The position numbers and the translations under genes were made by a program. Below are positions 24,782 through 36,361 of a stretch of 64,000 nucleotides of DNA, piece by piece. Numbering within the stretch: position 1 is the first letter of the stretch; the number at the start of each line of letters is the position of its first letter. The stretch lies in IMG/VR virus record IMGVR_UViG_3300045988_154391. One strand, 5' to 3'. A model generated the notes under the pieces. That model saw only the letters and a program-made list of their open reading frames with translations. It ran no database searches and was not told the origin of the DNA. This DNA is from a virus (lineage: Duplodnaviria; Heunggongvirae; Uroviricota; Caudoviricetes).

Positions 24782-25798
24782 ATGGCCACAAAGACCACCA
24801 CCGCCCCGGAAACTGATTCAAAACGCACTCAGCTATTCCTGCAATCTGTTTCAATTGGGCAGAACGAAATACCTCGCGAAATGATCGTAGGATGTACCTA
24901 TGTCGAACCCGGGGAGCTATCTGGTCCCCAGCTTATGCTCATGGTCAGGGATTCAACAGCTTACGTGGTCAATAAGCTGGGGGTGAAATTTGGGACAATA
25001 CTGACAGTTTCACTTGGTGATCCGGAAGGTCATGGCGGCATCCTGTTCTCGGAAGAGTTCTTTGTTCTTAAAGCGCCGCGCAAGGACGATACCGTACTGA
25101 TTTACGCGTTTAGTAACCCGGTGCGGTTATTAAAAGTTCCGTCCACCAGCGCACAGTATTTTGTTGATAAGCCCCCATCAGCCGTAGTTTCCTCTCTTGC
25201 CCCTGGTCTGAAGGTAAATGCTGACTCATTCAGAAAAACATCCACATACCACCTAAATGTTGGAGAAAAACCGACCAAGGTATTGCAGGAGATAGCCCGG
25301 GATACCGGTTCTATGTGCTGGGCATCCAGGGGGACGATCAATTTTAAAAGTATGGAAAAAATGGCAAACGCCGCTCCATCGCTTACTTATGAGTCCGCCA
25401 ATCCCAACACATCCGGATTTACAATTAGTCAGTTCAACATCCTGAATGCCGATTATGAATACCAGCGCCGCCACAATTACAGAATGGCCAGTTATGACAT
25501 GACCAAAGGTGTGGTTTACTCAGGTAACCAGGAAGACCCCATTAAATTTACGAGCAATCCCGATCCTACCGCGCTGGCGAACTACAACAAATTCATTCTC
25601 CCCCGCCTCGATATGCTGGTGGAAGGAAATGCCGCGCTAACTCCGGGTACGACGCTGAAAATTGTCGTGCATAACACGGCAGGTGACGGAGAACTCGATG
25701 AATCTATCCCTGACAAAATGATAGTGATGTCCGTGACTCATTTCGAAGACCGCTTCCGTTTTGTCAGCCGTGCACAGTTAGGAGTGGTGAATGGGTAG
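24782..25798 (+). CDS. Putative baseplate hub-like protein
   Basis: 338 aa; directly precedes and overlaps the spike gene; functional call is from position only. Confidence 0.35.
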
Positions 25799-26423
25799 TT
25801 TGACAGGGAAGTATCGGGCTGTAGTGGTAAGCGTCGATGACCCTAAAGGTCTGATGCGTACGCAAATACGCGTTGTCGGCATGATGGATGGTTTACCAGA
25901 TGCCTCATTGCCGTGGGCAGAAGCTATATTGTCCAATGCAAACACGTTTTCACCATTTCTGCCCGGCGATAAAGTATGGGTAGAATTTCCCTACAATGGG
26001 GATTCTCGATGGCCATTGATAATCGGTTATGCACAGGATGCATCCGGTGGCGCTCCCAATGTGCCGCCTGAAGCGTCAGGACAAGGTGAAGGCTATGTAC
26101 CGCCTGAAGTCGAAGGTGCACCAGCACAACCATCAACCAGCGCCAAAAAAGACTTTATTTCGTCGCGGAACGGACTAATGGAGGTCCGGACGGCGGGCGG
26201 AGCCTGGGCCGTTACGCACTTGAAAAGTGGAACAACAATCGGGTTCAACGAGGCCGGGGAGTTATATGCCATTTCTCAAGGTCCGGCATTCATCTCTTCC
26301 GCAGGAAATCTCGATATAAAGTCAGGCGCGGATGTCGCCCTGAAGGCGGGGGGAAGTATGGCGATAGAGGCCAGCGGGAATCTATCCATAAAAGCCGCTC
26401 AAGTCTCTGTTGACAAGGCTTAA
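25791..26423 (+). CDS. Baseplate central spike protein (gpV / gp5 N-terminal OB-fold type)
   Basis: 210 aa; N-terminal [27 protein letters not shown]...PWA...[10 protein letters not shown] resembles P2 gpV. Confidence 0.55.
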
Positions 26424-26452
26424 GAAAAGCCCGGCGATCGGGCTTTTCTTTT
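26424..26452. terminator. Bidirectional rho-independent terminator
   Basis: AGCCCG-gcgat-CGGGCT flanked by an A-run and a T-run, between convergent genes. Confidence 0.6.
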
Positions 26453-26468
26453 ATAATGGGTTCAATTT

Positions 26469-27443
26469 TTATCCGTTACCGCACGACGGTTTCTGCGTGA
26501 TAAACGTCTCAAGCATCTTTTCCGCAATTGCCGACCAGGTGTGACACTGGACCTTTTCAGCATTTTTCACGCGATCAACGCGAGCAATAACCTCATCCCA
26601 ATCAATCCGCGACTTGATAACCATATGGTTCACCAAAGCCAGGCGATCTGGCGGAAGGCAATCGGGAGGCGTTAATACCAACGCCCCGCACATTGCCGCC
26701 TCAAGAACAGTTAATCCAAGGCTTTCGGGATGCGTAACGATAAAAACGTCACTCTTACGCAATTCAGCTGCAAATTCGGTTGCTGGCACCGGCGTCCGTC
26801 TGTATGGAATTACCGAAATATTCCCCGGATCAATGGTAACCAATCCGTCATCAGTCAACGTTCTGGCCTCATACGGAACGGTCAGACGCTGAAGGTTCAT
26901 AAGGATACTTAAGGAGTGATCAAACCCACTAACATCAAATGCAGCGTGGTCTACAAAAATACGCAGAACATCGTCTGTTTTGGTTTCCAGATGGAACAGA
27001 TCCTGATTCGCTGCCCATCCAACATGTTTGTTAAAGCGATTATGACGCTCTAACCTGCCGGGATTATCCAGGTACCGCCAGGTATCATCGCGGACAGTAA
27101 AAGTAATATCGACTGGTGCCGAATCCAGCATAGAACCGTCATATACCTGGGCTACCCATCCAGAGAATCGGCGACACAGTTGCATGCCTATTTCCCTGGG
27201 TACCGTAGTAAAATACCTCAATCCTGGTGCCAAAATGGCCTTCGCAGAACATGCGGTCGCAGCAGTCAACACAGCTTCAACATAATCCTCCGGGCTTTCG
27301 ACGCCGGGGGAATATGGACGATGGTATTGCAATGTAACCCCTGCCTCACTAAAGGCGCAGGCCAGGTTATAAGCCCACATTTCCGTATATGTTTTCACAT
27401 CACTGATAGCTTCAAATTTTCGCCCAATGATCAGGATGTTCAT
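26469..27443 (-). CDS. GT-B fold glycosyltransferase (GT4-like)
   Basis: 324 aa; C-terminal THPESLGLTVLEAAMCGALVL, the E-x7-E region. Confidence 0.5.
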   Translation of the reverse strand: MNILIIGRKFEAISDVKTYTEMWAYNLACAFSEAGVTLQYHRPYSPGVESPEDYVEAVLTAATACSAKAILAPGLRYFTTVPREIGMQLCRRFSGWVAQVYDGSMLDSAPVDITFTVRDDTWRYLDNPGRLERHNRFNKHVGWAANQDLFHLETKTDDVLRIFVDHAAFDVSGFDHSLSILMNLQRLTVPYEARTLTDDGLVTIDPGNISVIPYRRTPVPATEFAAELRKSDVFIVTHPESLGLTVLEAAMCGALVLTPPDCLPPDRLALVNHMVIKSRIDWDEVIARVDRVKNAEKVQCHTWSAIAEKMLETFITQKPSCGNG

Positions 27444-27742
27444 TGCGTCTCCTTTTCCCTGACTAAAAGCTCATCCAGCTTGCTTTTATGTTTGAGCACA
27501 TAGCCACATATTTTTCCTTTGGAGCTAATTTGCGGAATGGAATAATATTCCGAAAATACTAATTCAGCCTTTTCTAAGACAAGTGAAACACCATAGCGCG
27601 CAACATGTCTGTCGGTCATTTTTGCATCACTGAGATTACCTTTAATTGATAACCAGTCGTTGAGGTACATATGGTTGCGATTGGCTTTTTTCAGCATGTT
27701 GCTCAACCAATTTTTATTACGCTTAGTTAGTTTCCGTTGCAT
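27440..27742 (-). CDS. Hypothetical basic protein
   Basis: 100 aa; 4-nt overlap with the glycosyltransferase gene and a 1-nt overlap with the end of ban. Confidence 0.4.
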   Translation of the reverse strand: MQRKLTKRNKNWLSNMLKKANRNHMYLNDWLSIKGNLSDAKMTDRHVARYGVSLVLEKAELVFSEYYSIPQISSKGKICGYVLKHKSKLDELLVREKETQ

Positions 27743-34728: not shown

Positions 34729-35630
34729 TGCTTAGCCTCTCCACCAAGGGCATTTACCAGAGCATCAACCAGGCACGAAATTTCACTGGTCAACAGGAAG
34801 AAATCTGCGTCCAGTCGCTGCGCTACATCTTCACTATCAATATCAGAGTTCTGATCAAGCAATTCATCCGCAAATTTGACGCTGGTAAGGCTGAAGTTAT
34901 GGTCCAGTGTAAATTTAATGCGGTTCTGCCAGTCGAGTGCCAACTTAGTGACGAGCTTGCCAGCTTCCAGGTGTGTGGAAATTTCATCGCTTCCCAAATC
35001 CTGCTTTTTCACTCGGGCAATACCGCCATCCTCAAGCACTGCCTTAAGTTCTGCCGCATCCCCCATTTGAAATCCCTGTGGAGCACTACCATCACGTACC
35101 CAGTCGGTCAGCGTTAATTCAATGGGATTTTCAACACTCAGGGGAACAACAGGAAGAGAACCCAGAGACTTACGCATAAGCGCGAGCATATCCTCTGCCT
35201 GCCGCGCGCTGGCATTGATATAGATACGTTTAGTTGAACCGTCGTAGATCGCCTGGATAACAGAAAACTTTGAAAAAGCCCGTGGCAGAAGAGAATGCAG
35301 AACTTCGTCTTTCAGGGAGTCCTTCTCTGTTTTCTTCAGTTTACGCGCTTGTTCTTGCTCAAGTTTTTCAATTTTTTCTTGAATAGCTCGCTGGATAACC
35401 GGCGGGGGAAGAATTTTTGTTTCGCGCTTTGCTTCAACAAGGATAAAACCATTTCCATGCATAGCGATAACTTCGGAATTATCACCAAATGGAGATACAA
35501 AACCGAACTTGGCCATATCCTGACTACCGCATGGCGTGAAAAGGATCATTTTCTTTTTATCTTCTAAGTCGGTCAGATCCGCCTCACGAGAAAGTTTATA
35601 AATAGTAATGTTTTTCCAGTGCTTAAACAT
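34725..35630 (-). CDS. hrdC: RdgC-like recombination-associated protein
   Basis: About 301 aa from the [13 protein letters not shown] start; [13 protein letters not shown] and [24 protein letters not shown] are near-identical to host RdgC as I recall it. Confidence 0.85.
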
Positions 35631-35979
35631 GTTGTAACCCTTGAATATCAACCACAGAAAGCTCGTCTTTGTAGAAAAAGGCCAGGTTGTGGCACCCCCT
35701 CGTTTGAGCGTATGAGCTGGGACCAATTTCGTTCTTCCAGACAAATGGCTTCAAATCCGTACGGCGAAGCATAAAAACGCGATTTGTTCCGCTCTGATTC
35801 CCAATGAGGCAAAAGCCTTCTTTCACCTTGATAGCCTGCAAGTTGTCGAGTTCACCGCTGGTTACACGGCTATCGAACTCTTTGCGGCTTATTAGCTCCA
35901 TCTGCATCTGACGACTCCAAACAAATGCCCATTGAAGGGCGATGGCTGAATGGTACCGAAAATACGACATAAAAAACAA
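35623..35979 (-). CDS. Hypothetical protein upstream of hrdC
   Basis: 118-aa ORF whose start abuts an operator-like site; first gene of the apparent three-gene dmt operon. Confidence 0.4.
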
Positions 35980-35995
35980 TATTTATTAGAGCAAT
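35979..35995. promoter_or_regulatory. C1-operator-like 17-mer (16/17)
   Basis: AtATTTATTAGAGCAAT at the 5' end of the minus-strand operon. Confidence 0.5.
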
Positions 35996-36076
35996 TTTGC
36001 AATAGTTGAACTCCATGTAGACCACAAACAACCTGAGTTAAAATAACGAAAATCAGAGCAAATAATTGGTGATGAC

Positions 36077-36361
36077 GTGGCAAGTATTGCAACAAAAGAC
36101 AGCATTTGTTCGGGGCACGGAGGATTCCCATCCAGGCCTCCTGTAGAGAGTGAACCACTACTTAAAGTCAACGGAGTCGAAGTGTTAGTTGATGGTAAGC
36201 AATATGCACAGCATACCGATGGAAACAGTACGCACGGTGGGCAAGCTATATCAACCAGGGCATGGTTTACCGTCAATGGTAAAGGGATCGTATGCGTTGG
36301 TGACCCTGTTTCATGCGGATCTACCGTAGCGTCCGGAGACGGCCTGGTTCAGGTAAGTTAG
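36077..36361 (+). CDS. PAAR-like spike-tip protein (putative)
   Basis: 94 aa; ICSGHGG, HTDGNSTHGG and VGDPVSCGSTVASGDG resemble PAAR repeats; appears to start on GTG. Confidence 0.5.
   Translation: MASIATKDSICSGHGGFPSRPPVESEPLLKVNGVEVLVDGKQYAQHTDGNSTHGGQAISTRAWFTVNGKGIVCVGDPVSCGSTVASGDGLVQVS

Follow-up and report, generated by a model that had tools for sequence, protein, structure and literature searches.

We analysed a 64,000-nucleotide stretch of viral DNA (hereafter the window) from the IMG/VR record IMGVR_UViG_3300045988_154391, in which a gene for a phage spike protein and a gene for a PAAR-like protein lie far apart. The initial annotation of these genes had offered two possibilities, namely that the second protein is the tip of the spike or that it is a free protein with another role. 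The 12.5 kb surrounding both genes show 97–98% DNA identity to phage P1, RCS47, P7 and other punaviruses, and the annotated P1 record corresponds to the window gene for gene; by these comparisons the window is a P1-like phage-plasmid. According to the P1 annotation, the genes 26-25-7-24-6-5 on the plus strand are followed by dbn, ban, the tci genes, tRNAs, dmt, hrdC and uhr on the minus strand. After uhr come upfC, upfB, ppfA, mlp and upfA on the plus strand, with the plasmid origin, repA and par beyond them. The genes of the spike complex are located as follows.

24782..25798, plus strand: gene 6, whose product gp6 is the trimeric hub of the baseplate and carries the spike (P1 annotation; PHROG 1390, E=1.6e-159)
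25791..26423, plus strand: gene 5, whose product gp5 of 210 amino acids (aa) forms the central spike as a trimer (PDB 9vzk_q, PF04717, PHROG 430)
36077..36361, plus strand: upfC, GTG-initiated, encoding a PAAR-repeat spike-tip protein of 94 aa (PDB 9vyi_A, PHROG 281, fold, metal site)
36370..37158, plus strand: upfB, encoding the "tripod" protein on the tip, 262 aa (PHROG 1559; role from PMC12810830)

The distance between gene 5 and upfC is 9,653 bp, in agreement with the separation of about 10 kb first reported. The open reading frame (ORF) at 25791..26423 was confirmed as the last gene of the 26-25-7-24-6-5 baseplate block, and the convergent dbn comes next. The PAAR gene had been described as lying beside the dmt operon and next to the replicon, which is accurate: the divergently transcribed uhr-hrdC-dmt adjoins it on the upstream side, and downstream come a Rep3-type initiator, parA and parB.

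The product of gene 5 is identical in 208 of 210 residues to the protein named Gp5 in PDB 9vzk_q and matches PHROG 430, the gp5-type family (E=1.3e-51). The Pfam profile PF04717 (Phage_base_V) is covered from position 1 to 73 of 75, with 22.9 bits for a cut-off of 23.8. No paralogue of gp5 was found among the six-frame segments of the window, and no lysozyme family of Pfam matched the 210-aa protein, in agreement with the literature (PMC12810830, PMC9024508). The sequence contains one histidine (H143) and no HxH motif, which by the criterion of PMC12407873 sets gp5 apart from self-tipped spikes such as P2 gpV. The earlier description "gpV-like" was right in that the protein is a spike and imprecise as to its type, because P2 gpV has a fused apex. 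Judged from its sequence, gp5 is a blunt spike of the T4 gp5 type, with an oligonucleotide/oligosaccharide-binding (OB) fold together with a beta-helix but without a lysozyme domain, and it requires a separate tip.

The second gene starts, as had been suggested, at a GTG. This is its only usable start, given an in-frame TAA at 36044-46 and the absence of internal methionines, and a Shine-Dalgarno motif (GGTGAT) is present at 36068-73. The predicted protein is identical in 93 of 94 residues to UpfC in PDB 9vyi_A, with a serine at position 86 in the window and an alanine in P1, a strain-level difference. A search for PAAR profiles, proposed as a check, gave a strong match to PHROG 281 "PAAR motif" (E=2e-30) and a near miss in Pfam, where PF05488 (PAAR_motif) reached 26.4 bits for a cut-off of 27.0 (E=8.5e-6); the precomputed PF05488 match is present in most homologues of UpfC. 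Nearly full-length matches were also obtained with T4 gp5.4 (5iv5, 4ku0; E about 1e-7, with a value of 8.6e-8) and with VCA0105, a PAAR protein of the type VI secretion system (T6SS; 4jiv_D, E=3.7e-4), and the tip protein of a Klebsiella phage (9f4b) was matched as well. A search of the window, divided into 1,139 six-frame segments, with a hidden Markov model (HMM) of the UpfC family recovered 36077..36361 as the only ORF, and the statement that it is the sole PAAR-like candidate stands.

An AlphaFold2 model of UpfC built with 20 homologues showed a conical all-beta PAAR fold with a predicted local distance difference test (pLDDT) score of 96. Foldseek superposed the model on 9VYI with a template modelling (TM) score of 0.95 and a root mean square deviation of 0.7 Å, and gave TM scores of 0.91 with T4 gp5.4 (4KU0_D), 0.88 with VCA0105 (4JIV_D) and 0.87 with c1882 (4JIW_D). 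The residues H14, H46, H53 and C80 are invariant in the 20 homologues, down to 40% identity, and align with the histidine and cysteine residues of gp5.4. UpfC is thus predicted to have a conserved tetrahedral metal site made of three histidines and one cysteine. The metal site of T4 gp5.4 is likewise built from three His and one Cys, and gp5.4 with the H14A mutation no longer attaches to the spike (PMC12407873). Many of the 94-aa homologues of UpfC (P0005, P0007, P0009, P0011, P0015, P0028, P0038, P0042) bear the NCBI/UniRef name "alanine racemase", apparently a wrong name for a PAAR spike-tip protein that has been passed from record to record.

The pairing of gp5 and UpfC as spike and tip is already known. 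The similarity of UpfC to T4 ORF 5.4 has been recorded in a note of the P1 GenBank entry since 2004. UpfC was later called the spike tip on the basis of HHpred, and P1 lacking upfC was found to form normal plaques (Gonzales et al. 2022, PMC9024508). CRISPR interference (CRISPRi) showed gene 5 to be essential in P1 and both upfC and upfB to be non-essential (Piya et al. 2023). According to a 2025 preprint, gp5.4 and UpfC are the only pair of tail proteins that match by BLAST between T4 and P1. In the cryo-electron microscopy (cryo-EM) of the P1 baseplate, trimeric gp5 and monomeric UpfC form the spike complex under gp6, named as the hub (PDB 9VYI/9VZK; PLoS Pathog 2026, PMC12810830). One UpfC, 99% identical to the protein of the window, was placed at the end of the gp5 trimer, and three "tripods", each a trimer of UpfB, were fitted on the tip (PMC12810830).

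We consider it almost certain that the window derives from a P1-type phage-plasmid in which the two ORFs are the spike gene 5 and the tip gene upfC, parted by cargo and expressed late. Of the two possibilities raised at the start, it is the spike tip, and with it the presence of structural genes in a plasmid-maintenance region, that is borne out, by the nearly identical protein modelled on the gp5 trimer. That the morphogenetic genes of P1 are scattered over the genome is textbook knowledge. In the assembled particle, three gp5 chains would form an OB-fold and beta-helix needle under the gp6 hub, and a single PAAR cone of UpfC, held by its metal site, would cap and sharpen the blunt end of the helix. 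Trimers of UpfB, encoded directly downstream and probably translationally coupled, would hang on the tip, and contraction of the sheath would push the whole spike assembly through the outer membrane. The UpfC tip would aid infection and be dispensable for plaque formation. The value of the present analysis lies mostly in correct annotation, with a small residue consisting of the synteny of the cargo slot, the late timing without a canonical promoter, the start of upfB and the misnamed homologues.

The window resembles the gp5-UpfC-UpfB complex of P1 (PDB 9VZK, 9VYI) in its proteins, gene order and flanking genes, and differs from reference P1 in having an SPFH gene in place of tciABC, an extra tRNA-Ser, a larger Dmt and another replicon. 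In T4, as in P1, a monomeric PAAR tip with three histidines and one cysteine sits on a blunt trimeric beta-helix spike (gp5-gp5.4; 4KU0, 5IV5), and, like UpfC, gp5.4 is a non-essential tip with a modest fitness benefit. The infectivity of the 5.4am mutant is down only 2.2-fold (2025 preprint). Its cost in fitness amounts to 1.55-fold. The two phages differ in that gp5 of T4 carries a lysozyme domain whereas gp5 of P1 does not, and in that a UpfB-like tripod exists in P1 but not in T4 (PMC12810830). P2 gpV has the same N-terminal OB-fold (PF04717) and beta-helix as gp5 and occupies the same position under the hub. At about 211 aa, gpV is similar in size to gp5. In gpV, however, the tip is fused to the spike, with iron bound at the apex by HxH motifs (PMC12407873), whereas gp5 relies on a separate PAAR protein. 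The VgrG-PAAR pairs of the T6SS (VCA0105, 4JIV; c1882, 4JIW) share the PAAR fold of UpfC, with the TM scores given above, and the same capping of a trimeric beta-helix. PAAR proteins of the T6SS often carry effector extensions, whereas UpfC, with its 94 aa, consists of the cone alone and belongs to a virion instead of a secretion system.

The timing of transcription separates upfC from the adjacent uhr, hrdC and dmt. RNA sequencing values are available for infection with P1vir, not the exact element of the window, as log fold changes at 10 and 30 min (PMC8201110, Table S1). Between these times upfC rises from 4.86 to 10.63, upfB from 4.12 to 11.07 and gene 5 from 4.23 to 9.90. The kinetics of ppfA, mlp and upfA resemble those of upfC and upfB and match genes 5, 6, 22 and 23, whereas uhr, hrdC and dmt are early, reaching 8.6–9.4 by 10 min (hrdC, 9.40). 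Because their kinetics match those of the late genes 5, 6, 22 and 23, upfC and upfB behave as a late unit amid early and plasmid genes.

This timing bears on the second possibility of the initial annotation, that UpfC is a free PAAR-like protein with another role. Such a role would lie outside the virion, for instance as a moron product that loads onto a T6SS spike of the host or as a protein active in the lysogen, and the position of the gene beside the plasmid genes would reflect it. Such a protein would be in keeping with a gene that sits amid early and plasmid-maintenance genes without a canonical late promoter, that is non-essential for plaques, and whose family is placed by PHROGs in the category "moron, auxiliary metabolic gene and host takeover"; the failure of mass spectrometry to detect UpfC points the same way. 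However, the upfC transcript is late, unlike those of its neighbours, and the published model of the virion places UpfC on the gp5 spike (PMC12810830). Linkage of upfC to the structural gene upfB is invariable, in diverged relatives upfC is found downstream of the baseplate block, and the 94-aa product is a bare PAAR protein without effector extension. We therefore regard a free PAAR protein as very improbable.

Comparison with relatives indicates that the spike-tip arrangement of the window is a stable one. We kept 80 IMG/VR loci, all of them close relatives that are 97–99% identical; the diverged contexts were taken from separate contigs encoding homologues. In all 80 close relatives hrdC is inverted directly upstream of upfC. 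For 58 of these loci the gap between gp5 and upfC measures 6.6–9.9 kb. About 13 others have a full left flank of 10 kb in which gp5 is absent, so that the gap exceeds 10 kb. The corresponding gap between spike and tip genes in T4 is only about 1 kb, compared with 9.65 kb in the window. Like upfC, gene 5.4 of T4 does not lie beside the spike gene, and the PDB molecule name of its product locates it in the "segC-Gp6 intergenic region".

The more distant homologues show two kinds of arrangement. In a P2-like prophage (L002) whose UpfC homologue has 43% identity, the Phage_base_V spike gene is followed at a distance of 5 bp by the PAAR gene, after which come gpW, gpJ and gpI. In three diverged P1-like lineages the genes lie on one strand in the order gp7-gp24-gp6-gp5, RdgC, Dam/Dmt, variable cargo, UpfC and UpfB, with spike-to-tip gaps of 2.5 kb (L009), 4.8 kb (L005) and 7.1 kb (L007). 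Identities in these lineages are 45–52% for gp5, 36–40% for gp6, 56–62% for UpfC and 24–30% for UpfB, which diverges far more than UpfC in the same comparisons. A recent rearrangement confined to this element, or an assembly artefact, is a very improbable source of the 10-kb separation: the window does differ from reference P1 within the gap (the SPFH gene, the tRNA-Ser, the divergent middle of dmt) and gap length varies between relatives, but P1, P7, RCS47 and the 80 IMG/VR loci all share this arrangement, and the diverged lineages also part gp5 from UpfC by RdgC and Dam.

Judged by synteny, the spike-to-tip interval behaves as a conserved slot for variable cargo across P1-like phage-plasmids, a point that is new here and modest. 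An ancestral baseplate operon may have ended in the genes for spike, tip and tripod, with upfC-upfB directly after gene 5, much as the PAAR gene adjoins the spike gene in the P2-like prophage. An RdgC-Dam module would then have lodged between gene 5 and upfC-upfB in the P1 lineage, to be followed by cargo specific to each lineage, and P1 proper would have enlarged the gap with ban, dbn, tRNAs and the tci or SPFH genes and inverted hrdC-dmt.

Several observations weigh against the explanation of the two genes as spike and late-expressed tip and against the history just proposed. The Pfam scores of the exact ORFs of the window fall slightly under the curated cut-offs (22.9 of 23.8 for Phage_base_V and 26.4 of 27 for PAAR). 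UpfC was not detected by liquid chromatography-tandem mass spectrometry of P1 virions, and neither were gp5 and gp26 (PMC9024508). All three are nonetheless visible by cryo-EM, and absence from the virion proteome, which had been put forward as grounds for refuting a structural role, would mislead. The insertion history is inferred from gene order in a few lineages and not from a rooted phylogeny. Finally, no sequence upstream of upfC comes within one mismatch of the late promoter consensus of P1 recognised with Lpa (a -22 box AARTNACTW, a spacer N5 and then TANAAT), and the best candidate site differs from the P1 reference at that place. The two promoter sites concerned are these.

21624..21642, plus strand: LP26, a perfect match (AAATGACTAGCGGTAGAAT) annotated in P1, which serves the 26-25-7-24-6-5 operon as its canonical Lpa-dependent late promoter
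36026..36044, plus strand: degenerate site (AAACAACCTGAGTTAAAAT), a candidate for the late promoter of upfC; its -10, TAAAAT, is good, and its -22 box departs from the consensus at two positions

Perfect matches to the consensus occur in the window at 21624 (LP26), 43049 (LP23), 54409 and 62675. Sites with at most two mismatches and a strict -10 number 8 on the plus strand and 2 on the minus strand, and the site at 36026-36044 is suggestive as a candidate late promoter of upfC. A sigma-70-like match at 36038-36066 was rejected as the upfC promoter because the transcript start would fall inside or after the Shine-Dalgarno sequence. The P1 late-promoter motif was not found in the diverged P1-like loci, a result that is uninformative on the upfC promoter there, and the activators of these loci probably recognise other sequences. 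What is left is that upfC-upfB is late in timing despite having no canonical Lpa promoter.

A broader reading would combine these observations, and we put it forward tentatively, as rather doubtful. The interval would be the cargo-integration slot of the whole P1-like group, and upfC-upfB would be a separable "tip cassette" in which a slowly evolving PAAR adaptor carries a fast-evolving tripod under a non-canonical late promoter of its own. If this were true, exchange of the cassette independently of the baseplate operon could tune penetration of the host envelope.

The start of upfB deserves correction. The GenBank-style start is an ATG at 36313, which gives a 49-nt overlap with upfC, while an AGGAG at 36360-64 overlaps the TAG stop of upfC ahead of the ATG at 36370. 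From the latter start, residues 1–262 of UpfB align with positions 1–263 of the 263 positions of the PHROG 1559 profile. The diverged homologues have 245–264 aa and start at the UpfC stop in L005-L009; in L010 an ORF of 122 aa lies between the two genes. The true start is probably the ATG at 36370, coupled to the stop of upfC, with the GenBank start mis-annotated. Searches with UpfB found no PDB sequence matches and no Pfam families.

Further genes follow upfB.

37171..37786, plus strand: ppfA and the overlapping mlp, an Rz/Rz1-like spanin pair (PHROG 89; PHROG 30284 "Rz-like spanin")
37798..38190, plus strand: upfA (late pattern in RNA sequencing)

The mlp gene overlaps the 3' part of ppfA out of frame, and ppfA, mlp and upfA share the strand and late timing of upfC-upfB. 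Since ppfA and mlp match spanins of the Rz/Rz1 type, the whole cluster at 36077-38190 carries late functions. These lysis genes also adjoin the plasmid origin.

The region between gene 5 and upfC contains the following.

26469..35979, minus strand: cargo block with dbn (glycosyltransferase), ban (DnaB-like helicase), an SPFH protein, four tRNAs, dmt, hrdC (RdgC) and uhr (ORFs, Pfam matches, tRNAs, P1 annotation)
35979..35995, minus strand: Odmt (Op68), an operator of the C1 repressor that lies in the divergent uhr/upfC region (P1 annotation; sequence identical in the window and P1)

The cargo block of the window differs from that of P1 in several places. An ORF of 100 aa at 27440..27742, with ban on one side and on the other a dbn shortened to 324 aa, has no family match and no P1 counterpart, and the alignment of the window with P1 is interrupted at 27443-27732. 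At 29476..30896, an SPFH/Band-7 protein (29495..30322) and a small membrane ORF (30303..30539) stand in place of tciA, tciB and tciC, and the tRNA-Ser(tga) that is extra relative to reference P1 lies at 30803..30889. Dmt (32140..34728) has 862 aa in the window and 754 aa in reference P1, with a divergent middle segment at about 33256..34007, between the C5-cytosine and N6-adenine methylase domains. In the diverged P1-like elements, the gap cargo (L005 8430..9781; L007 6095..8650) consists of a ParM/StbB partition system, or of ParE toxin-antitoxin and UmuD/UmuC-like genes; plasmid-maintenance and SOS-mutagenesis cargo gather there in one slot.

Downstream of the late cluster, the replicon segment at 38327..40577 does not align with repA/incA of P1. 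It encodes the Rep3-type initiator (38467..39408, 313 aa) and a protein with a T5orf172 domain (39701..40510), and the P1-like alignment picks up again from about 40577 with parA and parB.

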